Below are positions 2,601 through 29,220 of a stretch of DNA of 64,000 bases, one piece after another (within the stretch, counting starts at the first letter, position 1; the number at the start of each line of letters is the position of its first letter). The stretch covers positions 1,984,001 to 2,048,000 of the forward strand of contig CM026547.1 in assembly GCA_014905635.1 (NCBI GenBank). The letters run 5' to 3'. Both the position numbers and the translations under genes were made by a program. The notes under the pieces are model-generated. The model was given only the letters and a program-made list of their open reading frames with translations, searched no databases and had not been told where the DNA came from. Source of the stretch: Scenedesmus sp. PABB004. Taxonomy: Eukaryota.

Positions 2601-5600
2601 CGCCGCCCGGCGGCCGCTCGGGCGCGCCCGGCGGAGCGGCGGCGCGCGGCGCGGGCCCGCGCGAGGGCGGCGCGGCGGCCCCGCACCGCGGCGCGCGCCG
2701 CCGGCGGTGCCCGGCGGGGCTGCGCGCGGCACGGTGCTGCGCGGCAGCGGCGGCCTTCCTCTGCACGTGGGGGACCGCGCGGACGCGTGCCGGGCGCGCC
2801 CGGCGGAGCGGCGGCGCGCGGCGCGGGCCCGCGCGAGGGCGGCGCGGCGGCCCCGCACCGCGGCGCGCGCGCCGGCGGTGCCCGGCGGGGCTGCGCGCGG
2901 CACGGTGCTGCGCGGCAGCGGGGGCCTTCCTCTGCACGTGGGGACCGCGCGGACGCGTGCCGGGCGCGCCCGGCGGAGCGACGGCGCGCGCGCGGGCCCG
3001 CGCGAGGGCGGCGCGGCGGCCCCGCACCGCGGCGCGCGCCGCCGGCGGTGCCCGGCGGGGCTGCGCGCGGCACGGTGCTGCGCGGCAGCGGGGCCTTCCT
3101 CTGCACGTGGGGGACCGCGCGGACGCGTGCCGGGCGCGCCCGGCGGAGCGGCGGCGCGCGGCGCGGGCCCGCGCGAGGGCGGTGCGGCGGCCCCGCACCG
3201 CGGCGCGCGCCGCCGGCGGTGCCCGGCGGGGCTGCGCGCGGCACGGTGCTGCGCGGCAGCGGGGGCCTTCCTCTGCACGTGGGGGACCGCGCGGACGCGT
3301 GCCGGGCGCCCGGCGGAGCGGCGGCGCGCGGCGCGGGCCCGCGCGAGGGCGGCGCGGCGGCCCCGCACCGCGGCGCGCGCCGCCGGCGGTGCCCGGCGGG
3401 GCTGCGCGCGGCACGGTGCTGCGCGGCAGCGGGGGCCTTCCTCTGCACGTGGGGGACCGCGCGGACGCGTGCCGGGCGCGCCCGGCGGAGCGGCGGCGCG
3501 CGGCGCGGGCCCGCGCGAGGGCGGCGCGGCGGCCCCGCACCGCGGCGCGCGCCGCCGGCGGTGCCCGGCGGGGCTGCGCGCGGCACGGTGCTGCGCGGCA
3601 GCGGGGGCCTTCCTCTGCACGTGGGGGACCGCGCGGACGCGTGCCGGGCGCGCCCGGCGGAGCGGCGGCGCGCGGCGCGGGCCCGCGCGAGGGCGGTGCG
3701 GCGGCCCCGCACCGCGGCGCGCGCCGCCGGCGGTGCCCGGCGGGGCTGCGCGCGGCACGGTGCTGCGCGGCAGCGGCGGCCTTCCTCTGCACGTGGGGGA
3801 CCGCGCGGACGCGTGCCGGGCGCGCCCGGCGGAGCGGCGGCGCGCGGCGCGGGCCCGCGCGAGGGCGGCGCGGCGGCCCCGCACCGCGGCGCGCGCCGCC
3901 GGCGGTGCCCGGCGGGGCTGCGCGCGGCACGGTGCTGCGCGGCAGCGGGGGCCTTCCTCTGCACGTGGGGGCGCGGACGCGGACGCGTGCCGGGCGCGCC
4001 CGGCGGAGCGGCGGCGCGCGGCGCGGGCCCGCGCGAGGGCGGCGCGGCGGCCCCGCACCGCGGCGCGCGCCGCCGGCGGTGCCCGGCGGGGCTGCGCGCG
4101 GCACGGTGCTGCGCGGCAGCGGGGGCCTTCCTCTGCACGTGGGGGACCGCGCGGACGCGTGCCGGGCGCGCCCGGCGGAGCGGCGGCGCGCGGCGCGGGC
4201 CCGCGCGAGGGCGGTGCGGCGGCCCCGCACCGCGGCGCGCGCCGCCGGCGGTGCCCGGCGGGGCTGCGCGCGGCACGGTGCTGCGCGGCAGCGGGGGCCT
4301 TCCTCTGCACGTGGGGGACCGCGCGGACGCGTGCCGGCGCGCCCGGCGGAGCGGCGGCGCGCGGCGCGGGCCCGCGCGAGGGCGGCGCGGCGGCCCCGCA
4401 CCGCGGCGCGCGCCGCCGGCGGTGCCCGGCGGGGCTGCGCGCGGCACGGTGCTGCGCGGCAGCGGGGGCCTTCCTCTGCACGTGGGGGACCGCGCGGACG
4501 CGTGCCGGGCGCGCCCGGCGGAGCGGCGGCGCGCGGCGCGGGCCCGCGCGAGGGCGGCGCGGCGGCCCCGCACCGCGGCGCGCGCCGCCGGCGGTGCCGG
4601 CGGGGCTGCGCGCGGCACGGTGCTGCGCGGCAGCGGGGGCCTTCCTCTGCACGTGGGGGACCGCGCGGACGCGTGCCGGGCGCGCCCGGCGGAGCGCGGC
4701 GCGCGGCGCGGCGCGCCCGCGCGAGGCGGCGCGGCGGCCCCGCACCGCGGCGCGCGCCGCCGGCGGTGCCCGGCGGGGCTGCGCGCGGCACGGTGCTGCG
4801 CGGCAGCGGGGGCCTTCCTCTGCACGTGGGGGACCGCGCGGACGCGTGCCGGGCGCGCCCGGCGGAGCGGCGGCGCGCGGCGCGGGCCCGCGCGAGGGCG
4901 GCGCGGCGCCCCGCACCGCGGCGCGCGCCGCCGGCGGTGCCCGGCGGCGGGGCTGCGCGCGGCACGGTGCTGCGCGGCAGCGGGGGCCTTCCTCTGCACG
5001 TGGGGGACCGCGCGGACGCGTGCCGGGCGCGCCCGGCGGAGCGGCGGCGCGCGGCGCGGGCCCGCGCGAGGGCGGCGCGGCGGCCCCGCACCGCGGCGCG
5101 CGCCGCCGGCGGTGCCCGGCGGGGCTGCGCGCGGCACGGTGCTGCGCGGCAGCGGCGGCCTTCCTCTGCACGTGGGGGACCGCGCGGACGCGTGCCGGGC
5201 GCGCCCGGCGGAGCGACGGCGCGCGGCGCGGCCGCGCGCGAGGGCGGCGCGGCGGCCCCGCACCGCGGCGCGCGCCGCCGCGGTGCCCGGCGGGGCTGCG
5301 CGCGGCACGGTGCTGCGCGGCAGCGGGGGCCTTCCTCTGCACGTGGGGGACCGCGCGGACGCGTGCCGGGCGCGCCCGGCGGAGCGGCGGCGCGCGGCGC
5401 GGGCCCGCGCGCGAGGGCGGCGCGGCGGCCCCGCACCGCGCGCGCGCCGCCGCCGGCGGTGCCCGGCGGGGCTGCGCGCGGCACGGTGCTGCGCGGCAGC
5501 GGGGGCCTTCCTCTGCACGTGGGGGACCGCGCGGACGCGTGCCGGGCGCGCCCGGCGGAGCGGCGGCGCGCGGCGCGGGCCCGCGCGAGGGCGGCGCGGC

Positions 5601-6265
5601 GGCCCCGCACCGCGGCGCGCGCCGCCGGCGGTGCCCGGCGGGGCTGCGCGCGGCACGGTGCTGCGCGGCAGCGGGGGCCTTCCTCTGCACGTGGGGGACC
5701 GCGCGGACGCGTGCCGGGCGCGCCCGGCGGAGCGGCGGCGCGCGGCGCGGGCCCGCGCGAGGGCGGCGGCGGCGCCCCGCACCGCGGCGCGCGCCGCCGG
5801 CGGTGCCCGGCGGGGCTGCGCGCGGCACGGTGCTGCGCGGCAGCGGGGGCCTTCCTCTGCACGTGGGGGACCGCGCGGACGCGTGCCGGGCGCGCCCGGC
5901 GGAGCGACGGCGCGCGCGCGGCGCGGGCCGCGCGAGGGCGGCGCGGCGGCCCCGCACCGCGGCGCGCGCCGCCGGCGGTGCCCGGCGGGGCTGCGCGCGG
6001 CACGGTGCTGCGCGGCAGCGGCGGCCTTCCTCTGCACGTGGGGGACCGCGCGGACGCGTGCCGGGCGCGCCCGGCGGAGCGGCGGCGCGCGGCGCGGGCC
6101 CGCGCGAGGGCGGCGCGGCGGCCCCGCACCGCGGCGCGCGCCGCCGGCGGTGCCCGGCGGGGCTGCGCGCGGCACGGTGCTGCGCGGCAGCGGCGGCCTT
6201 CCTCTGCACGTGGGGGACCGCGCGGACGCGTGCCGGGCGCGCCCGGCGGAGCGACGGCGCGCGGC

Positions 6266-6483
6266 ATTGCGGGGCATCACCTGGTCTCCTTGGGCGCCCG
6301 TTGGGCGTTGGCCTCTGGCTGTGCCGTTGGGTGATGTGTGGGCCCCCTCTCGGGGGGCGCCGCGGGGCGCGGTTTTTCACGAGGGGTTGCTGCGCTCTTC
6401 CCGTTGGAGTTTTTTTCAGTGGCTGCCCCTGGGCCTCGGTCCTTGTCTGCGTCACCCATTGTAACAAAAAAAAAAAAAAAAAA
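6266..6483 (+). mobile_element. 5'-truncated LINE family A copy (3'UTR plus poly(A))
   Basis: Ends CCCATTGTAAC(A)n; 13-bp TSD GACGGCGCGCGGC at 6253-6265 and 6484-6496. Confidence 0.95.
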
Positions 6484-9010
6484 GACGGCGCGCGGCGCGG
6501 GCCCGCGCGAGGGCGGCGCGGCGGCCCTGCACCGCGGCGCGCGCCGCCGGCGGTGCCCGGCGGGGCTGCGCGCGGCACGGTGCTGCGCGGCAGCGGGGGC
6601 CTTCCTCTGCACGTGGGGGACCGCGCGGACGCGTGCCGGGCGCGCCCGGCGGAGCGGCGGCGCGCGGCGCGGGCCCGCGCGAGGGCGGCGCGGCGGCCCC
6701 GCACCGCGGCGCGCGCCGCCGGCGGTGCCCGGCGGGGCTGCGCGCGGCACGGTGCTGCGCGGCAGCGGGGGCCTTCCTCTGCACGTGGGGGACCGCGCGG
6801 ACGCGTGCCGGGCGCGCCCGGCGGAGCGGCGGCGCGCGGCGCGGGCCCGCGCGAGGGCGGCGCGGCGGCCCCGCACCGCGGCGCGCGCCGCCGGCGGTGC
6901 CCGGCGGGGCTGCGCGCGGCACGGTGCTGCGCGGCAGCGGGGGCCTTCCTCTGCACGTGGGGGACCGCGCGGACGCGTGCCGGGCGCGCCCGGCGGAGCG
7001 GCGGCGCGCGGCGCGGGCCCGCGCGAGGGCGGCGCGGCGGCCCCGCACCGCGGCGCGCGCCGCCGGCGGTGCCCGGCGGGGCTGCGCGCGGCACGGTGCT
7101 GCGCGGCAGCGGGGGCCTTCCTCTGCACGTGGGGGACCGCGCGGACGCGTGCCGGGCGCGCCCGCGGAGCGGCGGCGCGCGGCGCGGGCCCGCGCGAGGG
7201 CGGCGCGGCGGCCCCGCACCGCGGCGCGCGCCGCCGGCGGTGCCCGGCGGGGCTGCGCGCGGCACGGTGCTGCGCGGCAGCGGGGGCCTTCCTCTGCACG
7301 TGGGGGACCGCGCGGACGCGTGCCGGGCGCGCCCGGCGGAGCGGCGGCGCGCGGCGCGGCCCGCGCGAGGGCGGCGCGGCGGCCCCGCACCGCGGCGCGC
7401 GCCGCCGGCGGTGCCCGGCGGGGCTGCGCGCGGCACGGTGCTGCGCGGCAGCGGGGGCCTTCCTCTGCACGTGGGGGACCGCGCGGACGCGTGCCGGGCG
7501 CGCCCGGCGGAGCGGCGGCGCGCGGCGCGGGCCCGCGCGAGGGCGGCGCGGCGGCCCCGCACCGCGGCGCGCGCCGCCGGCGGTGCCCGGCGGGGCTGCG
7601 CGCGGCACGGTGCTGCGCGGCAGCGGCGGGCCTTCCTCTGCACGTGGGGGACCGCGCGGACGCGTGCCGGGCGCGCCCGGCGGAGCGGCGGCGCGCGGCG
7701 CGGGCCCGCGCGAGGGCGGCGCGGCGGCCCCGCACCGCGGCGCGCGCCGCCGGCGGTGCCCGGCGGGGCTGCGCGCGGCACGGTGCTGCGCGGTGCGGGG
7801 GCCTTCCTCTGCACGTGGGGGACCGCGCGGACGCGTGCCGGGCGCGCCCGGCGGAGCGGCGGCGCGCGGCGCGGGCCCGCGCGAGGGCGGCGCGGCGGCC
7901 CCGCACCGCGGCGCGCGCCGCCGGCGGTGCCCGGCGGGGCTGCGCGCGGCACGGTGCTGCGCGGCAGCGGGGGCCTTCCTCTGCACGTGGGGGACCGCGC
8001 GGACGCGTGCCGGGCGCGCCCGGCGGAGCGGCGGCGCGCGGCGCGGGCCCGCGCGAGGGCGGCGCGGCGGCCCCGCACCGCGGCGCGCGCCGCCGGCGGT
8101 GCCCGGCGGGGCTGCGCGCGGCACGGTGCTGCGCGGCAGCGGCGGCCTTCCTCTGCACGTGGGGGACCGCGCGGACGCGTGCCGGGCGCGCCGGCGGAGC
8201 GGCGGCGCGCGGCGCGGGCCCGCGCGAGGGCGGCGCGGCGGCCCCGCACCGCGGCGCGCGCCGCCGGCGGTGCCCGCGGGGCTGCGCGCGGCACGGTGCT
8301 GCGCGGCAGCGGCGGCCTTCCTCTGCACGTGGGGGACCGCGCGGACGCGTGCCGGGCGCGCCCGGCGGAGCGGCGGCGCGCGGCGCGGGCCCGCGCGAGG
8401 GCGGCGCGGCGGCCCCGCACCGCGGCGCGCGCCGCCGGCGGTGCCCGGCGGGGCTGCGCGCGGCACGGTGCTGCGCGGCAGCGGCGGCCTTCCTCTGCAC
8501 GTGGGGGACCGCGCGGACGCGTGCCGGGCGCGCCCGGCGGAGCGGCGGCGCGCGGCGCGGGCCCGCGCGAGGGCGGCGCGGCGGCCCCGCACCGCGGCGC
8601 GCGCCGCCGGCGGTGCCCGGCGGGGCTGCGCGCGGCACGGTGCTGCGCGGCAGCGGCGGCCTTCCTCTGCACGTGGGGGACCGCGCGGACGCGTGCCGGG
8701 CGCGCCCGGCGGAGCGGCGGCGCGCGGCGCGGGCCCGCGCGAGGGCGGCGCGGCGGCCCCGCACCGCGGCGCGCGCCGCCGGCGGTGCCCGGCGGGGCTG
8801 CGCGCGGCACGGTGCTGCGCGGCAGCGGCGGCCTTCCTCTGCACGTGGGGGACCGCGCGGACGCGTGCCGGGCGCGCCCGGCGGAGCGGCGGCGCGCGGC
8901 GCGGGCCCGCGCGAGGGCGGCGCGGCGGCCCCGCACCCGCGGCGCGCGCCGCCGGCGGTGCCCGGCGGGGCTGCGCGCGGCACGGTGCTGCGCGGCAGCG
9001 GGGGCCTTCC

Positions 9011-9094
9011 CGTTGGAGTTTTTTTCAGTGGGCTGCCCCTGGGCCTCGGTCCTTGTTTGGTCACCCATTGTAACAAAAAAAAAAAAAAAAAAAA
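9011..9094 (+). mobile_element. 5'-truncated LINE family A copy
   Basis: Same 3' end plus poly(A); TSD GCGGGGGCCTTCC at 8998-9010 and 9095-9107; CTTCC microhomology at the 5' junction. Confidence 0.95.
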
Positions 9095-11153
9095 GCGGGG
9101 GCCTTCCTCTGCACGTGGGGGACCGCGCGGACGCGTGCCGGGCGCGCCCGGCGGAGCGACGGCGCGCGGCGCGGGCCCGCGCGAGGGCGGCGCGGCGGCC
9201 CCGCACCGCGGCGCGCGCCGCCGGCGGTGCCCGGCGGGGCTGCGCGCGGCACGGTGCTGCGCGGCAGCGGGGGCCTTCCTCTGCACGTGGGGGACCGCGC
9301 GGACGCGTGCCGGGCGCGCCCGGCGGAGCGGCGGCGCGCGGCGCGGGCCCGCGCGAGGGCGGCGCGGCGGCCCCGCACCGCGGCGCGCGCCGCCGGCGGT
9401 GCCCGGCGGGGCTGCGCGCGGCACGGTGCTGCGCGGCAGCGGGGGCCTTCCTCTGCACGTGGGGGACCGCGCGGACGCGTGCCGGGCGCGCCCGGCGGAG
9501 CGGCGGCGCGCGCGCGGGCCCGCGCGAGGGCGGCGCGGCGGCCCCGCACCGCGGCGCGCGCCGCGGCGGTGCCCGGCGGGGCTGCGCGCGGCACGGTGCT
9601 GCGCGGCAGCGGGGGCCTTCCTCTGCACGTGGGGGACCGCGCGGACGCGTGCCGGGCGCGCCCGGCGGAGCGGCGGCGCGCGGCGCGGGCCGCGCGAGAG
9701 GGCGGCGCGGCGGCCCCGCACCGCGGCGCGCGCCGCCGGCGGTGCCCGGCGGGGCTGCGCGCGGCACGGTGCTGCGCGGCAGCGGCGGCCTTCCTCTGCA
9801 CGTGGGGGACCGCGCGGACGCGTGCCGGGCGCGCCCGGCGGAGCGGCGGCGCGCGGCGCGGGCCGCACGAGGGCGGCGCGGCGGCCCCGCACCGCGGCGC
9901 GCGCCGCCGGCGGTGCCCGGCGGGGCTGCGCGCGGCACGGTGCTGCGCGGCAGCGGGGGCCTTCCTCTGCACGTGGGGGACCGCGCGGACGCGTGCCGGG
10001 CGCGCCCGGCGGAGCGACGGCGCGCGGCGCGGGCCCGCGCGAGGGCTGCGCGGCGGCCCCGCACCGCGGCGCGCGCCGCCGGCGGTGCCCGGCGGGGCTG
10101 CGCGCGGCACGGTGCTGCGCGGCAGCGGGGGCCTTCCTCTGCACGTGGGGGACCGCGCGGACGCGTGCCGGGCGCGCCCGGCGGAGCGGCGGCGCGCGGC
10201 GCGGGCCCGCGCGAGGGCGGCGCGGCGGCCCCGCACCGCGGCGCGCGCCGCCGCGGTGCCCGGCGGGGCTGCGCGCGGCACGGTGCTGCGCGGCAGCGGC
10301 GGCCTTCCTCTGCACGTGGGGGACCGCGCGGACGCGTGCCGGGCGCGCCCGGCGGAGCGGCGGCGCGCGGCGCGGGCCGCGCGCGAGGGCGGCGCGCGGC
10401 CCCGCACCGCGCGCGCGCCGCCGGCGGTGCCCGGCGGGGCTGCGCGCGGCACGGTGCTGCGCGCAGCGGCGCGGCCTTCCTCTGCACGTGGGGGACCGCG
10501 CGGACGCGTGCCGGGCGCGCCCGGCGGAGCGACGCGGCGCGCGGCGCGCCCGCGCGCGAGGGCGGCGCGGCGGCCCCGCACCGCGGCGCGCGCCGCCGGC
10601 GGTGCCCGGCGGGGCTGCGCGCGGCACGGTGCTGCGCGGCAGCGGGGGCCTTCCTCTGCACGTGGGGGACCGCGCGGACGCGTGCCGGGCGCGCCCGGCG
10701 GAGCGGCGGCGCGCGGCGCGGGCCCGCGCGAGGGCGGCGCGGCGGCCCCGCACCGCGGCGCGCGCCGCCGCGGTGCCCGGCGGGGCTGCGCGCGGCACGG
10801 TGCTGCGCGGCAGCGGCGGCCTTCCTCTGCACGTGGGGGACCGCGCGGACGCGTGCCGGGCGCGCCCGGCGGAGCGACGGCGCGCGGCGCGGGCCCGCGC
10901 GAGGGCGGCGCGGCGGCCCCGCACCGCGGCGCGCGCCGCCGGCGGTGCCCGGCGGGGCTGCGCGCGGCACGGTGCTGCGCGGCAGCGGGGGCCTTCCTCT
11001 GCACGTGGGGGACCGCGCGGACGCGTGCCGGGCGCGCCCGGCGGAGCGGCGGCGCGCGGCGCGCGGCCCGCGCGAGCGGCGGGGCGCGGCGCGCCGGCCC
11101 CGCACCGCGGCGCGCGCCGCCGGCGGTGCCCGGCGGGGCTGCGCGCGGCACGG

Positions 11154-11226
11154 TTTTTTTTTTGGTTTTTTTTTTGTTACAATGGGTGACCAGACAAGGA
11201 CCGAGGCCCAGGGGCAGCCCACTGAA
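11154..11226 (-). mobile_element. 5'-truncated LINE family A copy, reverse orientation
   Basis: Poly(T)-GTTACAATGGGTGACC...CCACTGAA; TSD CGCGCGGCACGG at 11142-11153 and 13114-13125. Confidence 0.92.
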
Positions 11227-11233
11227 CGCGCGG

Positions 11234-13097
11234 GCGGAGCGGCAGCGAGCCGAGACGCCAGACCCGGAGCCTGGGCTGCCGGCGTGGCAGAAAGTCTCGC
11301 CCCCGCGGCGCCACGTCATGGAGCGCGTCGGGCCGGCGGCGGCCGCTGCCGCCGCGCGGCGCGGCGCGAGGAGCATGAGCAGCGGCGGGAGCAGCAGCTG
11401 GCTGCCCCTGGGCCTCGGTCCTTGTTTGGTCACCCATTGTAACAAAAAAAAAAAAAAAAAAAAAAAAGCAGCTGGAGCAGCGCAGGACCCTGGTTCAGGA
11501 GCCGCGCGCCAACGACCTCGTCGACCCGCTCACTGGTGCGACTGCGCCGCCGCGCGCCGGCGAGCGCGCGGAGCCGCCCGCCTGGGCCGCCTGCTACGCG
11601 CGCGCGCAGCAGGCGCGCATGCCGCGCGCCCTGCGACACTTTGGCTGGAGCCTGCTGCACGGCGGGGTGCGCGTCAGCGGCGATAGGGTCTTCTCTTACC
11701 AGCGCGCGGCGCCGGAGCTGGCGGAGCTGGCGTGCCCGCACCCGCTCTGCCGCGCGCGCAGCAGCAGCCGCCGCTGGAGACGCTCGGCCACGTCCTCGGC
11801 GGCTGCCCCGTGGCGGCGGCGGTGCTGCAGTGGTTTGCTCACCTCTGGGCGCGGCTGCAGCCGGGCTTCCCGCGCGCGCCGCCCCGCCCAGGGTGATGCT
11901 GGCGGACGACTTTGCCAGGTCGGGCGTCGCGCCGGAGCTGCAGCAGCTCTGGACGCACCTCCGCCTGCTGCTACTGCGCGCCCTGCTCGCCGCGCGCGCG
12001 CGGTACGGCGGCGGCCAGCCCGGGCACGCGCCTGTGGCGGCGATTCGCATCTTTGTGTACTCGGTGCGCGACGCAGTCGTGCTGGACTGGCGCAAGGCAG
12101 CGATGGACGTGCGCGCGCTGGCGGGCGTGCCGCGCTCCTGGCTGTCGGGCTCCGGCAAGGAGCTCACTCGGGCAGATTTCGAACGCCGGTGGTGCCACCG
12201 AGGGGTCATCGCGCGCACGGGCCAGCACGGGGGCCGCTTCACAATGGAGTTCCGGCTCACCGCAGCGGGCGTGCCGGCGCTGCCGGCGGCGCCGGCGCTG
12301 GCCCCGCCGGCGGCGCAGGACCCGCGGCGGCGCGGCGGCGGCGCGGCGGCGGCGCGCAGCGCGGCGGCTAGCTGCAGGGGCCGGGGGGGTCCGCGGCCGG
12401 GCTTGCTGCGACCCCGCTGGCTGCGTGTCGCGCCTCTTCTGCAGCGTGCAAGGTTGGGCGGTGTCCCCCCGTGCCGCGGGGCTGGTGTCCTGCGTGTTTG
12501 TCGTCGCGCGGCGAGGGGGCTGCAGCCGATGGGGCCGGCCCCTGGCGCCGCCGGCGTGTTTTGGCGGCTGCACGCGCTCCGTGCGCGGCGGCTTGGCGTG
12601 CTGCCTGCCCGGTGGGGCGGCTTTCTCGTCGGTGCGCGGCTTTCTCAGGGGTTTTTGCAGCAAAGCCAACTGCTGCCCCCTGGTATGTGCGTGTGTCGTC
12701 GCGCGGCGCGGGGGCTGATGCCGCTGAGGCCGGCCCCTGCCGCCGCCAGCGTGGGTGGCGTTTGCGCGTGATCTCTGCGCGGAGGCTTGGAGCCGGTGCA
12801 CCTCGCTGCACCGATGCCCGGTGCGGCTCGCCGCACCGGAAGGGGGGTGTGCGGCCTGATCTGCTGCTGCCCCTTTGATTGCGGGGCATCACCTGGTCTC
12901 CTTGGGCGCCCGTTGGGCGTTGGCCTCTGGCTGTGCCGTTGGGTGATGTGTGTGCCCCCTCTCGGGGGGCGCCAGGGCGCGGTTTTTCACGAGGGGTTGC
13001 TGCGCTCTTCCCGTTGGAGTTTTTTTTTCAGTGGGCTGCCCCTGGGCCTCGGTCCTTGTCTGGTCACCCATTGTAAAAAAAAAAAAAAAAAAAAAAA
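11234..13097 (+). mobile_element. 1.9-kb 5'-truncated LINE family A copy nested in the previous copy
   Basis: Matches the reverse complement of 28635-30232. Encodes the ORF2 C-terminus (FGWSLLHGG, CPHPLC...ETLGHVLGGCP CCHC-like motif). 23-bp TSD GGGGCAGCCCACTGAACGCGCGG at 11211-11233 and 13098-13120. Confidence 0.93.
11402..11467 (+). mobile_element. Very short LINE family A copy nested in the 1.9-kb copy
   Basis: Last ~42 nt of the 3'UTR plus poly(A); TSD GCAGCTGG at 11394-11401 and 11468-11475. Confidence 0.9.
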
Positions 13098-14477: not shown

Positions 14478-14831
14478 ACTTGGTCGGAGTAGGCGCGGTT
14501 GTTGCCGGCTAGAAGAGCGAGTCGACAACGGCGGACAGCGGCGGTTGGCCAACGAGAGAGCACGGAGACACGAGTGAAGGAGCAAAGGTTACATGTGCGT
14601 GGTGAAGAGACTCCTTAGGCAAACGGGGCGGGCGCACGGAGCTATATAGCCGAAACGGTATCGGTAATCGCAGCTTCTCGGCGGCTGCCGGTAGCTGCGC
14701 CGTAAGCAGCTTCCACCGCGGTTAGCACCTTCCACAAGAGCCCAACTAAGGCCCAAAGTTCCGAGTAGCTTCCTTTAGGCTCCATGCACGCAATGGGGTG
14801 AGTGTGCGGCCGAAAACACGCACTCTCATCA
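14478..14831 (-). repeat. 3' LTR (354 bp)
   Basis: Appears identical to 19423-19776. Starts TGATGAG; contains TATATA and TGTAA; preceded by a short purine-rich CGTGGGAG. Confidence 0.95.
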
Positions 14832-14851
14832 CTCCCACGCGGACGCAACAC

Positions 14852-16513: not shown

Positions 16514-16628
16514 GTTGTCGTTGCTCTCGGGCGCCGGGCTCGGCGCGGGCGGCGGCGAGCCGCCCGGGCTCGAGGGCGGGGAGCCGCCGGGGCTCGCGGG
16601 CGGGGAGCCGCCCGGGGTGCCCGGCGGG

Positions 16629-18479: not shown

Positions 18480-18786
18480 GACGGTAGCCGCGTTGGCGGG
18501 CCGATGGAGTTATTGGCGGATGTCTCCCACGTCACGCCGCGCCGTAGACGCGCGCACGTACGAGGTGTACGGACGCCCCGCCTAGATGTCCGATGCACGC
18601 GGCCGAGACGTACGCACACCTACGTACGGCGCGGGCGCGGGCGGACGGCGAAGGGGGCAAGGCCCCTTTGAAGTTAGCTCAGGTTTGGAGACACGAGGCG
18701 CGCGCTAGCGTAGCGTGCGAGCGTAGCCGAGGCGCACGCGCGGGCGCAAGAGCGGCCGGGCGCGAGCGCGGCGCGCGTTACGAGTT

Positions 18787-18890
18787 GGTCGAGGGCGCCG
18801 AGGGTCGTAGGGGCGCGAGGGTCGAGGGCGCCGAGAGTCGTAGGGGCGCGAGGGTCGAGGGCGCCGAGGGTCGTAGGGGCGCGGGTCGAG
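18787..18890. repeat. ~33-bp tandem repeat (3 copies) in the copia 5' leader
   Basis: GGTCGAGGGCGCCGAG(G/A)GTCGTAGGGGCGCG(A) repeated three times. Confidence 0.85.
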
Positions 18891-19410
18891 GGATGTCCTC
18901 CAACGTCACGCCGCCGTGTAGACACGCACGCCCAAGGTGCACGGACGCCCGCCTTGATGACCGATGCGCACGGCCGGGTCGTACGTACACCTGTGAGCGG
19001 CGCGGGCGGGCGGACGGGCGAAGGGCCGAGGCCCTTGAGCGCGAGAAGAGGCAAAGTCGGCGCGAGAAGGGCCGACGTCGAGCGCGCGGCGCCGAGTAGA
19101 TCGAGCGCGGCGCGGGAAGCGCGACGGAGCGCGACGGAGCGCAAACGAGCACGCGCGAGCAAGCGCGGCGCGATTTACTGCGTTTGACGAGGGCGACTCA
19201 AGTAAAAGAAGTCGCGGACAAGGGGCGATGGCCTCTGCCAAGCGCCAAGTAGACAATAGGGCTCTCGAATAGGACGGTGGAGGTCGCAGGATCGAATCTG
19301 GGGCCTTCTTTTTGGGCCGCTTGACGGAGGCCTCCGGAGCTCCGCGGAGTTGTCGAGTTGCCGGAGCGATGCGCGCGAAGCCTCCGCGATGCCTTTAGAG
19401 CACCGGGGAT

Positions 19411-19422
19411 GGGCTCATGACC
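19411..19422 (-). promoter_or_regulatory. Primer-binding site, half-tRNA-iMet type
   Basis: GGTCATGAGCCC directly after the 5' LTR resembles the complement of the tRNA-iMet anticodon arm (GGTTATGAGCCC) used by Hemivirus-type copia elements. Confidence 0.7.
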
Positions 19423-19776
19423 ACTTGGTCGGAGTAGGCGCGGTTGTTGCCGGCTAGAAGAGCGAGTCGACAACGGCGGACAGCGGCGGTTGGCCAACGA
19501 GAGAGCACGGAGACACGAGTGAAGGAGCAAAGGTTACATGTGCGTGGTGAAGAGACTCCTTAGGCAAACGGGGCGGGCGCACGGAGCTATATAGCCGAAA
19601 CGGTATCGGTAATCGCAGCTTCTCGGCGGCTGCCGGTAGCTGCGCCGTAAGCAGCTTCCACCGCGGTTAGCACCTTCCACAAGAGCCCAACTAAGGCCCA
19701 AAGTTCCGAGTAGCTTCCTTTAGGCTCCATGCACGCAATGGGGTGAGTGTGCGGCCGAAAACACGCACTCTCATCA
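19423..19776 (-). repeat. 5' LTR (354 bp)
   Basis: Direct repeat of 14478-14831. Confidence 0.95.
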
Positions 19777-22700
19777 CGGCCCCGCACCGCGGCGCGCGCC
19801 GCCGGCGGTGCCCGGCGGGGCTGCGCGCGGCACGGTGCTGCGCGGCAGCGGGGGCCTTCCTCTGCACGTGGGGGACCGCGCGGACGCGTGCCGGGCGCGC
19901 CCGGCGGAGCGGCGGCGCGCGGCGCGGGCCCGCGCGAGGGCGGCGCGGCGGCCCCGCACCGCGGCGCGCGCCGCCGGCGGTGCCCGGCGGGGCTGCGCGC
20001 GGCACGGTGCTGCGCGGCAGCGGGGGCCTTCCTCTGCACGTGGGGGACCGCGCGGACGCGTGCCGGGCGCGCCCGGCGGAGCGGCGGCGCGCGGCGCGGG
20101 CCCGCGCGAGGGCGGCGCGGCGGCCCCGCACCGCGGCGCGCGCCGCCGGCGGTGCCCGGCGGGGCTGCGCGCGGCACGGTGCTGCGCGGCAGCGGGGGCC
20201 TTCCTCTGCACGTGGGGGACCGCGCGGACGCGTGCCGGGCGCGCCCGGCGGAGCGGCGGCGCGCGGCGCGGGCCCGCGCGAGGGCGGCGCGGCGGCCCCG
20301 CACCGCGGCGCGCGCCGCCGGCGGTGCCCGGCGGGGCTGCGCGCGGCACGGTGCTGCGCGGCAGCGGGGGCCTTCCTCTGCACGTGGGGGACCGCGCGGA
20401 CGCGTGCCGGGCGCGCCCGGCGGAGCGGCGGCGCGCGGCGCGGGCCGCGCGAGGGCGGCGCGGCGGCCCCGCACCGCGGCGCGCGCCGCCGGCGGTGCCC
20501 GGCGGGGCTGCGCGCGGCACGGTGCTGCGCGGCAGCGGGCGCCTTCCTCTGCACGTGGGGGACCGCGCGGACGCGTGCCGGGCGCGCCCGGCGGAGCGGC
20601 GGCGCGCGGCGCGGGCCCGCGCGAGGGCGGCGCGGCGGCCCCGCACCGCGGCGCGCGCCGCCGGCGGTGCCCGGCGGGGCTGCGCGCGGCACGGTGCTGC
20701 GCGGCAGCGGCGGCCTTCCTCTGCACGTGGGGGACCGCGCGGACGCGTGCCGGGCGCGCCCGGCGGAGCGGCGGCGCGCGGCGCGGGCCCGCGCGAGGGC
20801 GGCGCGGCGGCCCCGCACCGCGGCGCGCGCCGCCGGCGGTGCCCGGCGGGGCTGCGCGCGGCACGGTGCTGCGCGGCAGCGGCGGCCTTCCTCTGCACGT
20901 GGGGGACCGCGCGGACGCGTGCCGGGCGCGCCCGGCGGAGCGGCGGCGCGCGGCGCGGGCCCGCGCGAGGGCGGCGCGGCGGCCCCGCACCGCGGCGCGC
21001 GCCGCCGGCGGTGCCCGGCGGGGCTGCGCGCGGCACGGTGCTGCGCGGCAGCGGCGGCCTTCCTCTGCACGTGGGGGACCGCGCGGACGCGTGCCGGGCG
21101 CGCCCGGCGGAGCGGCGGCGCGCGGCGCGGGCCCGCGCGAGGGCGGCGCGGCGGCCCCGCACCGCGGCGCGCGCCGCCGGCGGTGCCCGGCGGGGCTGCG
21201 CGCGGCACGGTGCTGCGCGGCAGCGGGCGCCTTCCTCTGCACGTGGGGGACCGCGCGGACGCGTGCCGGGCGCGCCCGGCGGAGCGGCGGCGCGCGGCGC
21301 GGGCCCGCGCGAGGGCGGCGCGGCGGCCCCGCACCGCGGCGCGCGCCGCCGGCGGTGCCCGGCGGGGCTGCGCGCGGCACGGTGCTGCGCGGCAGCGGCG
21401 GCCTTCCTCTGCACGTGGGGGACCGCGCGGACGCGTGCCGGGCGCGCCCGGCGGAGCGGCGGCGCGCGGCGCGGGCCCGCGCGAGGGCGGCGCGGCGGCC
21501 CCGCACCGCGGCGCGCGCCGCCGGCGGTGCCCGGCGGGGCTGCGCGCGGCACGGTGCTGCGCGGCAGCGGCGGCCTTCCTCTGCACGTGGGGGACCGCGC
21601 GGACGCGTGCCGGGCGCGCCCGGCGGAGCGGCGGCGCGCGGCGCGGGCCCGCGCGAGGGCGGCGCGGCGGCCCCGCACCGCGGCGCGCGCCGCCGGCGGT
21701 GCCCGGCGGGGCTGCGCGCGGCACGGTGCTGCGCGGCAGCGGCGGCCTTCCTCTGCACGTGGGGGACCGCGCGGACGCGTGCCGGGCGCGCCCGGCGGAG
21801 CGGCGGCGCGCGGCGCGGGCCCGCGCGAGGGCGGCGCGGCGGCCCCGCACCGCGGCGCGCGCCGCCGGCGGTGCCCGGCGGGGCTGCGCGCGGCACGGTG
21901 CTGCGCGGCAGCGGCGGCCTTCCTCTGCACGTGGGGGACCGCGCGGACGCGTGCCGGGCGCGCCCGGCGGAGCGGCGGCGCGCGGCGCGGGCCCGCGCGA
22001 GGGCGGCGCGGCGGCCCCGCACCGCGGCGCGCGCCGCCGGCGGTGCCCGGCGGGGCTGCGCGCGGCACGGTGCTGCGCGGCAGCGGCGGCCTTCCTCTGC
22101 ACGTGGGGGACCGCGCGGACGCGTGCCGGGCGCGCCCGGCGGAGCGGCGGCGCGCGGCGCGGGCCCGCGCGAGGGCGGCGCGGCGGCCCCGCACCGCGGC
22201 GCGCGCCGCCGGCGGTGCCCGGCGGGGCTGCGCGCGGCACGGTGCTGCGCGGCAGCGGGGGCCTTCCTCTGCACGTGGGGGACCGCGCGGACGCGTGCCG
22301 GGCGCGCCCGGCGGAGCGGCGGCGCGCGGCGCGGGCCCGCGCGAGGGCGGCGCGGCGGCCCCGCACCGCGGCGCGCGCCGCCGGCGGTGCCCGGCGGGGC
22401 TGCGCGCGGCACGGTGCTGCGCGGCAGCGGGGGCCTTCCTCTGCACGTGGGGGACCGCGCGGACGCGTGCCGGGCGCGCCCGGCGGAGCGGCGGCGCGCG
22501 GCGCGGGCCCGCGCGAGGGCGGCGCGGCGGCCCCGCACCGCGGCGCGCGCCGCCGGCGGTGCCCGGCGGGGCTGCGCGCGGCACGGTGCTGCGCGGCAGC
22601 GGGGGCCTTCCTCTGCACGTGGGGGACCGCGCGGACGCGTGCCGGGCGCGCCCGGCGGAGCGGCGGCGCGCGGCGCGGGCCCGCGCGAGGGCGGCGCGGC

Positions 22701-25700
22701 GGCCCCGCACCGCGGCGCGCGCCGCCGGCGGTGCCCGGCGGGGCTGCGCGCGGCACGGTGCTGCGCGGCAGCGGGGGCCTTCCTCTGCACGTGGGGGACC
22801 GCGCGGACGCGTGCCGGGCGCGCCCGGCGGAGCGGCGGCGCGCGGCGCGGGCCCGCGCGAGGGCGGCGCGGCGGCCCCGCACCGCGGCGCGCGCCGCCGG
22901 CGGTGCCCGGCGGGGCTGCGCGCGGCACGGTGCTGCGCGGCAGCGGGGGCCTTCCTCTGCACGTGGGGGACCGCGCGGACGCGTGCCGGGCGCGCCCGGC
23001 GGAGCGGCGGCGCGCGGCGCGGGCCCGCGCGAGGGCGGCGCGGCGGCCCCGCACCGCGGCGCGCGCCGCCGGCGGTGCCCGGCGGGGCTGCGCGCGGCAC
23101 GGTGCTGCGCGGCAGCGGGGGCCTTCCTCTGCACGTGGGGGACCGCGCGGACGCGTGCCGGGCGCGCCCGGCGGAGCGGCGGCGCGCGGCGCGGGCCCGC
23201 GCGAGGGCGGCGCGGCGGCCCCGCACCGCGGCGCGCGCCGCCGGCGGTGCCCGGCGGGGCTGCGCGCGGCACGGTGCTGCGCGGCAGCGGGCGCCTTCCT
23301 CTGCACGTGGGGGACCGCGCGGACGCGTGCCGGGCGCGCCCGGCGGAGCGGCGGCGCGCGGCGCGGGCCCGCGCGAGGGCGGCGCGGCGGCCCCGCACCG
23401 CGGCGCGCGCCGCCGGCGGTGCCCGGCGGGGCTGCGCGCGGCACGGTGCTGCGCGGCAGCGGCGGCCTTCCTCTGCACGTGGGGGACCGCGCGGACGCGT
23501 GCCGGGCGCGCCCGGCGGAGCGGCGGCGCGCGGCGCGGGCCCGCGCGAGGGCGGCGCGGCGGCCCCGCACCGCGGCGCGCGCCGCCGGCGGTGCCCGGCG
23601 GGGCTGCGCGCGGCACGGTGCTGCGCGGCAGCGGCGGCCTTCCTCTGCACGTGGGGGACCGCGCGGACGCGTGCCGGGCGCGCCCGGCGGAGCGGCGGCG
23701 CGCGGCGCGGGCCCGCGCGAGGGCGGCGCGGCGGCCCCGCACCGCGGCGCGCGCCGCCGGCGGTGCCCGGCGGGGCTGCGCGCGGCACGGTGCTGCGCGG
23801 CAGCGGCGGCCTTCCTCTGCACGTGGGGGACCGCGCGGACGCGTGCCGGGCGCGCCCGGCGGAGCGGCGGCGCGCGGCGCGGGCCCGCGCGAGGGCGGCG
23901 CGGCGGCCCCGCACCGCGGCGCGCGCCGCCGGCGGTGCCCGGCGGGGCTGCGCGCGGCACGGTGCTGCGCGGCAGCGGCGGCCTTCCTCTGCACGTGGGG
24001 GACCGCGCGGACGCGTGCCGGGCGCGCCCGGCGGAGCGGCGGCGCGCGGCGCGGGCCCGCGCGAGGGCGGCGCGGCGGCCCCGCACCGCGGCGCGCGCCG
24101 CCGGCGGTGCCCGGCGGGGCTGCGCGCGGCACGGTGCTGCGCGGCAGCGGGGGCCCTTCCTCTGCACGTGGGGGACCGCGCGGACGCGTGCCGGGCGCGC
24201 CCGGCGGAGCGGCGGCGCGCGGCGCGGGCCCGCGCGAGGGCGGCGCGGCGGCCCCGCACCGCGGCGCGCGCCGCCGGCGGTGCCCGGCGGGGCTGCGCGC
24301 GGCACGGTGCTGCGCGGCAGCGGGGGCCTTCCTCTGCACGTGGGGGACCGCGCGGACGCGTGCCGGGCGCGCCCGGCGGAGCGGCGGCGCGCGGCGCGGG
24401 CCCGCGCGAGGGCGGCGCGGCGGCCCCGCACCGCGGCGCGCGCCGCCGGCGGTGCCCGGCGGGGCTGCGCGCGGCACGGTGCTGCGCGGCAGCGGGGCCT
24501 TCCTCTGCACGTGGGGGACCGCGCGGACGCGTGCCGGGCGCGCCCGGCGGAGCGGCGGCGCGCGGCGCGGGCCCGCGCGAGGGCGGCGCGGCGGCCCCGC
24601 ACCGCGGCGCGCGCCGCCGGCGGTGCCCGGCGGGGCTGCGCGCGGCACGGTGCTGCGCGGCAGCGGCGGCCTTCCTCTGCACGTGGGGGACCGCGCGGAC
24701 GCGTGCCGGGCGCGCCCGGCGGAGCGGCGGCGCGCGGCGCGGGCCCGCGCGAGGGCGGCGCGGCGGCCCCGCACCGCGGCGCGCGCCGCCGGCGGTGCCC
24801 GGCGGGGCTGCGCGCGGCACGGTGCTGCGCGGCAGCGGGGGCCTTCCTCTGCACGTGGGGGACCGCGCGGACGCGTGCCGGGCGCGCCCGGCGGAGCGGC
24901 GGCGCGCGGCGCGGGCCCGCGCGAGGGCGGCGCGGCGGCCCCGCACCGCGGCGCGCGCCGCCGGCGGTGCCCGGCGGGGCTGCGCGCGGCACGGTGCTGC
25001 GCGGCAGCGGGGGCCTTCCTCTGCACGTGGGGGACCGCGCGGACGCGTGCCGGGCGCGCCCGGCGGAGCGGCGGCGCGCGGCGCGGGCCCGCGCGAGGGC
25101 GGCGCGGCGGCCCCGCACCGCGGCGCGCGCCGCCGGCGGTGCCCGGCGGGGCTGCGCGCGGCACGGTGCTGCGCGGCAGCGGCGGCCTTCCTCTGCACGT
25201 GGGGGACCGCGCGGACGCGTGCCGGGCGCGCCCGGCGGAGCGGCGGCGCGCGGCGCGGGCCCGCGCGAGGGCGGCGCGGCGGCCCCGCACCGCGGCGCGC
25301 GCCGCCGGCGGTGCCCGGCGGGGCTGCGCGCGGCACGGTGCTGCGCGGCAGCGGCGGCCTTCCTCTGCACGTGGGGGACCGCGCGGACGCGTGCCGGGCG
25401 CGCCCGGCGGAGCGGCGGCGCGCGGCGCGGGCCCGCGCGAGGGCGGCGCGGCGGCCCCGCACCGCGGCGCGCGCCGCCGGCGGTGCCCGGCGGGGCTGCG
25501 CGCGGCACGGTGCTGCGCGGCAGCGGGGGCCTTCCTCTGCACGTGGGGGACCGCGCGGACGCGTGCCGGGCGCGCCCGGCGGAGCGGCGGCGCGCGGCGC
25601 GGGCCCGCGCGAGGGCGGCGCGGCGGCCCCGCACCGCGGCGCGCGCCGCCGGCGGTGCCCGGCGGGGCTGCGCGCGGCACGGTGCTGCGCGGCAGCGGGG

Positions 25701-28271
25701 GCCTTCCTCTGCACGTGGGGGACCGCGCGGACGCGTGCCGGGCGCGCCCGGCGGAGCGGCGGCGCGCGGCGCGGGCCCGCGCGAGGGCGGCGCGGCGGCC
25801 CCGCACCGCGGCGCGCGCCGCCGGCGGTGCCCGGCGGGGCTGCGCGCGGCACGGTGCTGCGCGGCAGCGGGGGCCTTCCTCTGCACGTGGGGGACCGCGC
25901 GGACGCGTGCCGGGCGCGCCCGGCGGAGCGGCGGCGCGCGGCGCGGGCCCGCGCGAGGGCGGCGCGGCGGCCCCGCACCGCGGCGCGCGCGCGCCGGCGG
26001 TGCCCGGCGGGGCTGCGCGCGGCACGGTGCTGCGCGGCAGCGGGGGCCTTCCTCTGCACGTGGGGGACCGCGCGGACGCGTGCCGGGCGCGCCCGGCGGA
26101 GCGGCGGCGCGCGGCGCGGGCCCGCGCGAGGGCGGCGCGGCGGCCCCGCACCGCGGCGCGCGCCGCCGGCGGTGCCCGGCGGGGCTGCGCGCGGCACGGT
26201 GCTGCGCGGCAGCGGCGGCCTTCCTCTGCACGTGGGGGACCGCGCGGACGCGTGCCGGGCGCGCCCGGCGGAGCGGCGGCGCGCGGCGCGGGCCCGCGCG
26301 AGGGCGGCGCGGCGGCCCCGCACCGCGGCGCGCGCCGCCGGCGGTGCCCGGCGGGGCTGCGCGCGGCACGGTGCTGCGCGGCAGCGGCGGCCTTCCTCTG
26401 CACGTGGGGGACCGCGCGGACGCGTGCCGGGCGCGCCCGGCGGAGCGGCGGCGCGCGGCGCGGGCCCGCGCGAGGGCGGCGCGGCGGCCCCGCACCGCGG
26501 CGCGCGCCGCCGGCGGTGCCCGGCGGGGCTGCGCGCGGCACGGTGCTGCGCGGCAGCGGGGGCCTTCCTCTGCACGTGGGGGACCGCGCGGACGCGTGCC
26601 GGGCGCGCCCGGCGGAGCGGCGGCGCGCGGCGCGGGCCCGCGCGAGGGCGGCGCGGCGGCCCCGCACCGCGGCGCGCGCCGCCGGCGGTGCCCGGCGGGG
26701 CTGCGCGCGGCACGGTGCTGCGCGGCAGCGGCGGCCTTCCTCTGCACGTGGGGGACCGCGCGGACGCGTGCCGGGCGCGCCCGGCGGAGCGGCGGCGCGC
26801 GGCGCGGGCCCGCGCGAGGGCGGCGCGGCGGCCCCGCACCGCGGCGCGCGCCGCCGGCGGTGCCCGGCGGGGCTGCGCGCGGCACGTGCTGCTGCGGCGG
26901 CAGCGGCGGCCTTCCTCTGCACGTGGGGGACCGCGCGGACGCGTGCCGGGCGCGCCCGGCGGAGCGGCGGCGCGCGGCGCGGGCCCGCGCGAGGGCGGCG
27001 CGGCGGCCCCGCACCGCGGCGCGCGCCGCCGGCGGTGCCCGGCGGGGCTGCGCGCGGCACGGTGCTGCGCGGCAGCGGGGGCCTTCCTCTGCACGTGGGG
27101 GACCGCGCGGACGCGTGCCGGGCGCGCCCGGCGGAGCGGCGGCGCGCGGCGCGGGCCCGCGCGAGGGCGGCGCGGCGGCCCCGCACCGCGGCGCGCGCCG
27201 CCGGCGGTGCCCGGCGGGGCTGCGCGCGGCACGGTGCTGCGCGGCAGCGGCGGCCTTCCTCTGCACGTGGGGGACCGCGCGGACGCGTGCCGGGCGCGCC
27301 CGGCGGAGCGGCGGCGCGCGGCGCGGGCCCGCGCGAGGGCGGCGCGGCGGCCCCGCACCGCGGCGCGCGCCGCCGGCGGTGCCCGGCGGGGCTGCGCGCG
27401 GCACGGTGCTGCGCGGCAGCGGCGGCCTTCCTCTGCACGTGGGGGACCGCGCGGACGCGTGCCGGGCGCGCCCGGCGGAGCGGCGGCGCGCGGCGCGGGC
27501 CCGCGCGAGGGCGGCGCGGCGGCCCCGCACCGTGGCGCGCGCCGCCGGCGGTGCCCGGCGGGGCTGCGCGCGGCACGGTGCTGCGCGGCAGCGGGGGCCT
27601 TCCTCTGCACGTGGGGGACCGCGCGGACGCGTGCCGGGCGCGCCCGGCGGAGCGGCGGCGGCGGCGCGGCGCGGGCCCGCGCGAGGGCGGCGCGGCGGCC
27701 CCGCACCGCGGCGCGCGCCGCCGGCGGTGCCCGGCGGGGCTGCGCGCGGCACGGTGCTGCGCGGCAGCGGGGGCCTTCCTCTGCACGTGGGGGACCGCGC
27801 GGACGCGTGCCGGGCGCGCCCGGCGGAGCGGCGGCGCGCGGCGCGGGCCCGCGCGAGGGCGGCGCGGCGGCCCCGCACCGCGGCGCGCGCCGCCGGCGGT
27901 GCCCGGCGGGGCTGCGCGCGGCACGGTGCTGCGCGGCAGCGGGGGCCTTCCTCTGCACGTGGGGGACCGCGCGGACGCGTGCCGGGCGCGCCCGGCGGAG
28001 CGGCGGCGCGCGGCGCGGGCCCGCGCGAGGGCGGCGCGGCGGCCCCGCACCGCGGCGCGCGCCGCCGGCGGTGCCCGGCGGGCTGCGCGCGGCGCACGGT
28101 GCTGCGCGGCAGCGGGGGCCTTCCTCTGCACGTGGGGGACCGCGCGGACGCGTGCCGGGCGCGCCCGGCGGAGCGGCGGCGCGCGGCGCGGGCCCGCGCG
28201 AGGGCGGCGCGGCGGCCCCGCACCGCGGCGCGCGCCGCCGGCGGTGCCCGGCGGGGCTGCGCGCGGCACGG
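19777..28271 (+). repeat. 172-bp satellite array, right segment (~49 uninterrupted, highly homogeneous monomers)
   Basis: TCTGCACG at 19861, 20033 and 20205 gives period 172. Same orientation and phase as the left segment across the copia TSD. Confidence 0.98.

Positions 28272-29189: not shown

Positions 29190-29220
<31 letters not shown>

Follow-up and report, generated by a model that had tools for sequence, protein, structure and literature searches.

A homogenised, GC-extreme 172-bp satellite invaded by retrotransposons as a candidate centromeric repeat island in the green alga Scenedesmus sp. PABB004

Described centromeres and how the locus compares

The human alpha satellite (171 bp) and the Arabidopsis satellite (178 bp) are nucleosome-length centromeric satellites, and classical centromeric satellites form megabase arrays, often with higher-order repeats, and are not GC-extreme; an earlier note on this DNA likewise described them as typically AT-rich. 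Centromeric satellite units generally measure 150–180 bp according to the available sections of PMC11005252, and the Tyba satellite of Rhynchospora sedges is described, in the available part of PMC10984392, as a 172-bp unit in CENH3-occupied arrays of 15–25 kb. The green-algal centromeres covered in the available sections of PMC8226300 and PMC11005252 consist of clustered elements, either Zepp/ZeppL L1 LINEs or Copia, and for two Chlorella centromeres the latter sections describe tandemly repeated satellites as absent.

The window, that is, the whole 64-kb stretch of Scenedesmus sp. PABB004 DNA that was analysed, contains a genuine satellite of a chlorophycean green alga, a non-coding repeat of 172 bp. 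Its unit length is identical to that of Tyba (172 bp) and the size of the array is similar (18 kb of satellite), whereas the Tyba arrays, in the part of that source available, recur every 300–400 kb along holocentric chromosomes and here one locus is visible, at 89.5% GC; the likeness is in lengths only, with no sequence relationship expected. Like the alpha and Arabidopsis satellites, the repeat has a nucleosome-length unit, is arranged head to tail, is strongly homogenised and has been invaded by retrotransposons, but the array is 18 kb long and 89.5% GC and lacks a higher-order repeat. The likeness to the Zepp/ZeppL centromeres of Coccomyxa and Chlamydomonas lies in poly(A) L1-type LINEs that are self-nested, localised and absent from neighbouring genes, and is one of L1 type, poly(A) and nesting; there, as far as the available text describes it, the LINE itself builds the cluster with no satellite matrix, whereas here the LINEs lie within satellite. 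The Ty1/copia element inserted in the island recalls the copia centromeres of Chromochloris zofingiensis and Chlorella in TE class only, the centromere there being made of copia and not of satellite (PMC8226300 and PMC11005252, available sections).

Satellite array and retrotransposon insertions

Derived from 99 full monomers, the consensus has 172 bp, 89.5% GC, 18 A/T positions and 43 CpG, and the units are on average 99.2% identical to it. Satellite DNA totals 18,092 bp (105.2 unit lengths) in a single orientation; the anchor CCTTCCTCTGCACGTGG occurs on the plus strand only (n = 103, 0 on the minus strand), 65 of its 102 spacings are exactly 172, and unit lengths range from 166 to 176. The earlier note had described a 172-bp, ~90% GC satellite with about 18 A/T and ~105 copies in one orientation, with which TRF and the consensus agree, and had claimed one CACGTG per monomer, which the 103 anchors, all containing CACGTG, bear out. 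The 99 units comprise 44 distinct sequences, the two commonest types accounting for 27 and 26 copies, and carry 97 substitutions, 39 of them at one G/C polymorphic site. Within the satellite, no higher-order period was found (TRF period 343 gives 90% matches vs 97–99% for 172), unit-to-unit similarity had no lag dependence, and no CpG-decay signature was found. The frame rotates with each unit, as 172 is not divisible by 3, and the six-frame ‘ORFs’ of the satellite arise solely from a lack of stop codons; no protein relative was found for its translation and no Rfam match for the satellite. The repeat combines constant-period, head-to-tail units of one orientation with concerted homogeneity and a non-coding character, at a unit length on the nucleosome scale (about 150–180 bp). 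The monomer had no relative in the rest of the 64-kb window (best match 101 bits vs ≤92.5 for 30 shuffled queries). A satellite 29-mer was absent from JGI metagenome contigs and the unit was uncovered by the contigs of four runs, results that are both uninformative on presence per chromosome.

The span 2619–28271, previously taken for a single array, is broken by LINE and copia insertions that make up 7,562 of its 25,653 bp and leave the satellite in three blocks (2619–11153, 13114–14477 and 19777–28271), all on the plus strand and all detected by TRF at period 172 with 95–99% matches. Block 1 is divided into 1a (2619–6265; TRF 2619–6265, 21.2 copies, 97% matches), 1b (6484–9009; TRF 6486–9010, 99% matches) and 1c (9095–11153; TRF 9094–11154, 96% matches); block 2 (13114–14477; TRF 13114–14193, 95% matches) holds 7 full and some irregular units, and block 3 (19777–28271; TRF 19777–28272, 49.3 copies, 99% matches) holds 49 units. 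Block 3 is the longest and most homogeneous block and is without TEs, with a mean of 1.8 differing columns between units vs 4.1 in block 1.

The LINE copies in the array, recognised by sequence reading and blastn, are 5'-truncated and L1-type, with poly(A), target-site duplications of 12–16 bp and, in some cases, nesting. A plus-strand 3' end with poly(A) at 6266–6483 (96.8% identical by blastn to the 3' end of the LINE at 28273–33600) is flanked by the 13-bp duplication GACGGCGCGCGGC at 6253–6265 and 6484–6496, and a second plus-strand 3' end with poly(A) (~85 bp, 9010–9094; 100% by blastn over 89 nt) by the 13-bp duplication GCGGGGGCCTTCC at 8998–9010 and 9095–9107. At 11154–13113 blastn segments and poly(A)/poly(T) runs resolve a three-level nest: the outer level, a minus-strand LINE 3' end with poly(T) at 11154–11175 and the 12-bp duplication CGCGCGGCACGG (11142–11153 and 13114–13125), is split by a plus-strand, 1.9-kb, 5'-truncated LINE (11232–13097) whose target is duplicated as GGCAGCCCACTGAA and which is itself interrupted by a 68-bp LINE 3' end (11400–11467). 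Target-site duplications of the LINEs in the array measure 13, 13, 12 and about 14 bp, and identity between the LINE pieces and the long copy is 94–100% (blastn). This long copy, a near-full-length L1-type LINE on the minus strand at 28272–33600 (Pfam RVT_1, E = 1.2e-28), adjoins the array with its poly(A) end at GGCACGG, the point in the monomer where the insertion at 11154 also lies, contains a tiny nested LINE 3' end at 28295–28302, and has a 340-bp tandem duplication in its 3' UTR (28303–28974; TRF period 340 x 2). Its ORF is 96–100% identical to Scenedesmus sp. PABB004 proteins; relatives of the family carry a PF03372 endonuclease and PF13966, and the closest named relatives outside PABB004 are L1 ORF2 proteins of Coccomyxa and Trebouxia (38–41% identity). 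By its RVT_1 domain, tails and three-level nesting, this main LINE is an L1-clade, poly(A)-tailed, self-nested family. Within the window blastn finds it only at 6266–13097 and from 28273 to ~33600, with none at 37–64 kb, and every A or T run of ≥10 nt in the window (8 in total) is a LINE tail lying within the island.

Between blocks 2 and 3, a complete 5,299-bp Ty1/copia LTR retrotransposon lies on the minus strand at 14478–19776 (Pfam Retrotran_gag_2, gag_pre-integrs, rve and RVT_2). Its 354-bp LTRs (14478–14831 and 19423–19776) are identical (354/354, 0 mismatches), it is flanked by the 5-bp duplication CGGCC (14473–14477 and 19777–19781), and the satellite phase runs unbroken across it; copia polyproteins of 1376 aa from Scenedesmus sp. 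PABB004 match its product at 99% identity. The identical LTRs, together with the 94–100% identity of the LINE pieces, indicate that the insertions are recent. A second, degenerate copia-like element on the plus strand (33603–36911) retains an RVT_2 fragment at 33906–34844 (Pfam E = 6.9e-54) flanked by direct repeats of 276 bp with 98.2% identity to each other (blastn). On the left flank, a plus-strand RT-domain fragment at 1350–1900 (Pfam RVT_1, E = 3.9e-14; ORF 1261–2618) belongs to a second, different LINE family, with an RT only 37% identical to that of the main family and no blastn match to it. Low-complexity GC-rich sequence lies between this fragment and position 2618.

Pfam-recognisable host genes begin at ~38.4 kb, about 10 kb from the array edge, and the main LINE family is absent from the ~27 kb of gene-bearing sequence that follows the island on the right. 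The best named relatives of a neighbouring Kelch gene are from Chromochloris (58%) and Monoraphidium (40%), and the host belongs to the same order as Chromochloris (Sphaeropleales). The genome of Scenedesmus sp. PABB004 is given as 39.8 Mb in 77 contigs, with 78.5% GC and 1.31% repeats (PMC12571836, available part); against this background, which the earlier note had missed, the GC extreme of the satellite appears to be an exaggeration of the genomic trend, and islands of TEs and satellite must be rare. Annotated copies of the two TE families lie on contigs of at least 16 different lengths among the members listed (15 of 20 for cluster 1 of the TE-family proteins), and for each of the five contigs on which two members are listed these have accession numbers ≤3 apart, an order that suggests one tight TE cluster per contig.

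Candidate centromere island and alternative readings

The reading preferred here, at a probability of roughly 45%, is that the homogenised non-coding satellite is the matrix of a gene-free retrotransposon island and that this island is a candidate centromere, a region of repeats at or beside the centromere of its chromosome. The array underlies, as its matrix, a gene-free repeat island spanning at least 37 kb, which a single L1-type LINE family and a single Ty1/copia family have entered repeatedly and recently. Under this reading, unequal exchange and gene conversion would keep the units nearly identical, each 172-bp unit would be the length of DNA wrapped in one nucleosome, and the retrotransposons would be either targeted to the island chromatin or tolerated nowhere else. 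The extreme GC content may be an amplified genomic trend, for example through GC-biased conversion. The presence of both an L1 LINE and copia, the two classes of described green-algal centromeres, favours a centromere. Against it stand recognisable genes as close as about 10 kb to the array, relaxed selection, which alone can explain TE accumulation in any satellite, the inference of one cluster per contig, which follows accession order and not coordinates, and the green-algal literature as far as available, where no precedent was found for a satellite-based centromere. The narrower proposition, that the 172-bp, 89.5% GC repeat is a centromeric satellite occurring once per chromosome, CENH3-bound and targeted by L1 and copia elements, is doubtful.

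The budding-yeast centromere CDEI site contains CACGTG, and a different role for the array would follow if the unit had been selected for dyad symmetry or cruciform formation together with its G-box/E-box, making the array a phased bHLH/bZIP platform, or a functional analogue of the CENP-B box or of CDEI. CACGTG occurs once per unit, within the sole A/T-containing patch, and 110 of the 124 occurrences in the window are inside 2619–28271; the palindromes listed in the earlier note do exist in the unit (16, 14, 14, 10 and 8 nt), and the predicted single-strand DNA fold is stable in absolute terms (-79 kcal/mol). When the 172-bp consensus was compared with 500 dinucleotide-preserving shuffles, however, the number of palindromes ≥8 nt (5 observed against 6.65 expected, a value reached by 373/500 shuffles), the total length of these palindromes (62 vs 62.7, 231/500), the length of the longest one (16 vs 12.3, 64/500), the count of inverted repeats with arms ≥6 and loop ≤40 (36 vs 37.6, 265/500) and DNA folding energy (-79.2 vs -78.8 kcal/mol, 220/500) were all within the shuffled distribution, and against mononucleotide shuffles folding energy alone stood out, weakly (z = -2.0, 17/500). 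The description of the unit as rich in dyad symmetry does not hold on any of these five measures, and the cruciform proposed in the earlier note is not supported, dyad content no higher than in shuffled 90%-GC sequence being what its author had named as refuting it; in sequence this rich in GC and CpG, long palindromes are expected by chance and are not a signal. Neither a G-quadruplex motif nor a ~10-bp A/T periodicity was found in the satellite, and the 58 substitutions outside the polymorphic site are too few to reveal extra conservation of the CACGTG patch. Selection for such a platform has a slim chance of being the explanation.

A long-read assembler might also have inflated or mis-joined a short repeat, so that the array size or block structure would be unreal; sequence of ~90% GC with G/C homopolymers is hard to read, and unit lengths of 166–176 could be partly indel error. 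The array carries at least five independent TE insertions, with clean target-site duplications and continuous array phase, so the insertions represent real transposition and the array is not an assembly artefact; variant patterns differ between blocks, and no duplicated stretch was seen. The existence of the repeat is secure, an artefact is very improbable, and the exact copy number alone is left to it. Almost as likely as a candidate centromere is a satellite of the ordinary, non-centromeric kind, located interstitially or subtelomerically and without chromosomal function; replication slippage and unequal crossing-over would have produced it as selfish or neutral sequence, and retrotransposons would gather in it only because, in so compact and gene-dense a genome, insertions at such a site do no harm. 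The array and insertion evidence fits this equally well, as do the genes 10 kb away, a monomer with neither a relative in the rest of the window nor a special structural signal, and the TE-rich centromeres of green algae, with no satellite arrays in two Chlorella species in the sources as available. On the other side, no telomere-type repeats (TTTAGGG, TTTTAGGG or TTAGGG dimers) were found in the 64 kb, a small window, and, in a genome with 1.3% repeats, a 37-kb island holding the two TE families that seem to cluster on many contigs has the look of centromeres in related algae as far as the available sources describe them.

Implications of the island

If merely a local satellite, the array is a clear case of TEs piling into one safe haven in an extreme-GC, repeat-poor genome. 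If the island is instead centromeric, its repeat would be, to our knowledge, the most GC-rich centromeric satellite known, and centromere function would tolerate about 90% GC and 25% CpG, a counter-example to tying that function to AT-richness or non-B DNA. For green algae, whose centromeres are otherwise TE-based in the available sections of the literature, no description of an earlier satellite-based centromere was found, and this one would be the first. The invariant CACGTG patch would then be a candidate protein-binding box. Scenedesmaceae are used in biotechnology, and a centromeric array would provide a sequence handle on the centromeres of this family.

Structure and homogeneity of the satellite

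A 172-bp period was recovered by TRF at 95–99% matches over positions 2619–6265, 6486–9010, 9094–11154, 13114–14193 and 19777–28272. The A/T-containing patch CCTTCCTCTGCACGTGG occurs 103 times in the window, always on the plus strand, with an anchor-to-anchor spacing of exactly 172 in 65 of 102 intervals. Cutting the array at this anchor and aligning the pieces yielded 99 full units (166–176 bp) and a consensus of 172 bp (89.5% GC; 18 A/T, 43 CpG, 86 G, 68 C), to which the units are on average 99.2% identical. In total the satellite comprises 18,092 bp, equivalent to 105.2 units. TRF, the anchor counts and the 99-unit alignment thus bear out the earlier note on its period, base composition, number of copies, orientation and coordinates (2619–28271). 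The span does not form one array, a point the earlier note missed: 7,562 of its 25,653 bp are transposable-element (TE) insertions, which part the satellite into blocks at 2619–11153 (block 1), 13114–14477 (block 2) and 19777–28271 (block 3). TRF sub-repeats with periods of 5–92 reached just 55–82% matches and were regarded as low-complexity noise.

Because the period is not divisible by three, the unit is non-coding. There were no matches to Rfam families across the whole window, satellite included. Six units, translated in the plus-strand frames and compared with a collection of 5.8 billion proteins, had no match at E ≤ 0.001 among proteins of 189–602 residues, and an 8-mer check of 139 retrieved proteins, including long chimeric TE gene models, detected no satellite-derived peptides; neither comparison revealed gene models over arrays of the unit. 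Derivation of the unit from a neighboring TE or flank was considered and rejected (best blastn match, 101 bits; shuffled queries: mean, 80.7; maximum, 92.5; n = 30); the unit has no relative elsewhere in the window beyond the level of shuffled queries.

Variation among units is dominated by a single polymorphic site (GGGGG in 59 units vs GGCGG in 39), with 58 substitutions outside of it in 99 units, and the two commonest unit types are present 27 and 26 times among the 99. The alleles at this site are weakly clustered along the array (39 runs vs 48.0 expected, P = 0.036). Unit similarity showed no dependence on inter-unit distance, and neither TRF nor unit comparison identified a higher-order repeat in the array. 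Unit pairs differ at 1.8 columns in the TE-free block 3, compared to 4.1 in the TE-invaded block 1. Seven transitions fell at the 86 CpG positions vs 10 at the 68 other G/C positions and, with no CpG excess, there is no footprint of methyl-CpG decay, though these counts are small.

The palindromes listed in the earlier note are present in the consensus, but its proposal of a unit rich in dyad symmetry, which by its own account would fall if dyad content were no higher than in shuffled sequence, is not borne out. When the consensus was taken as circular and compared to 500 dinucleotide-preserving shuffles, there was no excess in the number of palindromes ≥8 nt (observed, 5; shuffle mean, 6.65; 373/500 shuffles as extreme), their summed length (62; 62.7; 231/500), the longest palindrome (16; 12.3; 64/500), inverted repeats with arms ≥6 and loops ≤40 (36; 37.6; 265/500), or single-strand DNA folding energy (−79.2 kcal/mol; −78.8; 220/500). 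Against mononucleotide shuffles, folding energy alone was mildly low (z = −2.0, 17/500). Long GC palindromes are to be expected, as CpG constitutes a quarter of all dinucleotides. Canonical G-quadruplex motifs with loops of up to 7 or 12 were absent from both strands of the unit, fewer than in shuffles, and the A/T positions of the unit had no periodicity peak near 10 bp.

Retrotransposon insertions and flanking genes

Satellite phase is unbroken across every TE insertion. In block 1, an L1-type LINE with a poly(A) tail is represented by 5′-truncated 3′ ends at 6266–6483 and ~9010–9094, each flanked by a 13-bp target-site duplication. Between blocks 1 and 2 (11154–13113), LINEs are nested three deep: the outermost piece is a minus-strand LINE end flanked by a 12-bp duplication, a 1.9-kb plus-strand LINE interrupts it, and a 68-bp LINE end has in turn entered the plus-strand copy. 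Blocks 2 and 3 are parted by a complete minus-strand Ty1/copia element (14478–19776; gag, integrase and RT by Pfam) with 354-bp LTRs lacking any mismatch and a 5-bp duplication. To the right, a near-full-length minus-strand LINE of the same family as the pieces in the array (28272–~33600) adjoins the array edge by its poly(A) end and is followed by a degenerate second copia-like element (33603–36911). To the left of the array is a piece of another, distinct LINE family, with (GCA)n/(GCG)n runs and other simple GC-rich repeats (2288–2445) lying between it and the array start. Within the window the LINE family of the array is restricted to this island of satellite and retrotransposons, and its tails account for all A or T runs of ≥10 nt in the 64 kb. 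It is secure that members of a single LINE family and a single copia family have repeatedly and recently entered the island.

The two independent minus-strand LINE insertions at 11154 and 28272 share an identical unit position, after GGCACGG, which could reflect an endonuclease target preference or an old duplication, two events being too few to separate these. The 3′ UTR of the long LINE carries a 340-bp tandem duplication (28303–28974; 2.0 copies, 97% matches), and the 5′-truncated copies at 6266–6483 and 12680–13097 match both copies of this repeat.

Host genes recognizable by Pfam begin at ~38.4 kb and include a HAD-type hydrolase, a Kelch protein and a DUF913/UBA ligase-like ORF; 20 further ORFs in 1–1228 and 33145–39099 had no Pfam match. 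The plus-strand ORFs at 56004–62767 have DUF913 and UBA domains, a signature of HUWE1-type giant HECT ubiquitin ligases, and are spread over several frames, presumably because of introns. Another plus-strand ORF (46382–48010) contains a tandem repeat of 30 nt/147 nt (47135–47852) encoding an F-G-containing peptide, the unit read as AGSTPAFGAA, and matches the Pfam family 'CTD' (Spt5 C-terminal repeat) at E = 2.3e-17. This low-complexity region is either FG-nucleoporin-like or Spt5-CTR-like.

Genomic background and environmental occurrence

The genome of Scenedesmus sp. PABB004 is listed in a comparative study as 39.8 Mb in 77 contigs with 78.5% GC and 1.31% repeats (PMC12571836), and GC content in the window's gene region is 78.2%. 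At 89.5%, the satellite exceeds an already extreme background by ~11 points and is not an isolated anomaly. The long LINE ORF shares 96–100% identity with five NCBI proteins from PABB004, and the strain also has 1376-residue proteins to which the copia polyprotein is 99% identical. The best named relatives of the neighboring Kelch gene are from Chromochloris (58%) and Monoraphidium (40%), both Sphaeropleales; in the ESM Atlas its ORF fell exclusively into generic eukaryotic Kelch clusters, which did not narrow the taxon.

Annotated copies of the LINE and copia element occur on at least 16 PABB004 contigs (15 of 20 members of one cluster listed). All five contigs with two listed TE copies have them ≤3 accession numbers apart, suggesting that LINE and copia copies sit together in a single tight cluster on each contig. 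Three PABB004 gene models of 2308–4173 residues cluster with both LINE and copia proteins, suggesting chimeric models that span neighboring TEs, in keeping with adjacent copies of the two families at other places in the genome.

An exact 29-mer of the unit matched no loci in JGI metagenome contigs. Seventeen sequencing runs (11 studies), stored as contigs, contain 6–44% of the words sampled from 27929–37900. Contigs of four runs (three studies), which carry no depth information, were aligned to 14305–15900, covering the copia LTR and interior at 95–99+% identity. These contigs run on into the copia interior and not into the satellite, where only two 18-nt scraps of the unit at 14305–14477 are covered and the uncovered part is uninformative either way. 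The four runs carrying the copia family (14478–15900) are freshwater or sludge metagenomes, indicating that the alga or close relatives occur there.

Possible centromere-associated island or local satellite

It is secure that a gene-free island, at least 37 kb long, has a homogenized non-coding satellite as its matrix. With ~1.3% repeats in the genome, and islands of a kind seen at the centromeres of related algae, we adopted the reading of a centromere-associated island with a core of nucleosome-length satellite, at a probability of roughly 0.45. In extracts of two studies (PMC8226300, PMC11005252), ZeppL L1 elements cluster at Chlamydomonas centromeres, the L1 element Zepp at those of Coccomyxa, and Copia elements at those of Chromochloris and Chlorella. 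The same literature also lends itself to an ordinary local satellite in which TEs find a safe haven, a tentative explanation that is nearly as plausible: the green-algal centromeres examined are TE-rich, and two from Chlorella are described as without satellite arrays in the extracts of PMC11005252. In the size of its units and arrays, the nearest formal counterpart, with no homology implied, is the satellite Tyba of Rhynchospora, which has a 172-bp unit and arrays of 15–25 kb bound by CENH3 (extracts of PMC10984392).

Literature searches found no description of the 172-bp satellite and turned up no genome paper for the strain. In kind, the repeat is satellite DNA. Only with the centromere role borne out would it be more than that, as a green-algal centromere based on a satellite of ~90% GC.
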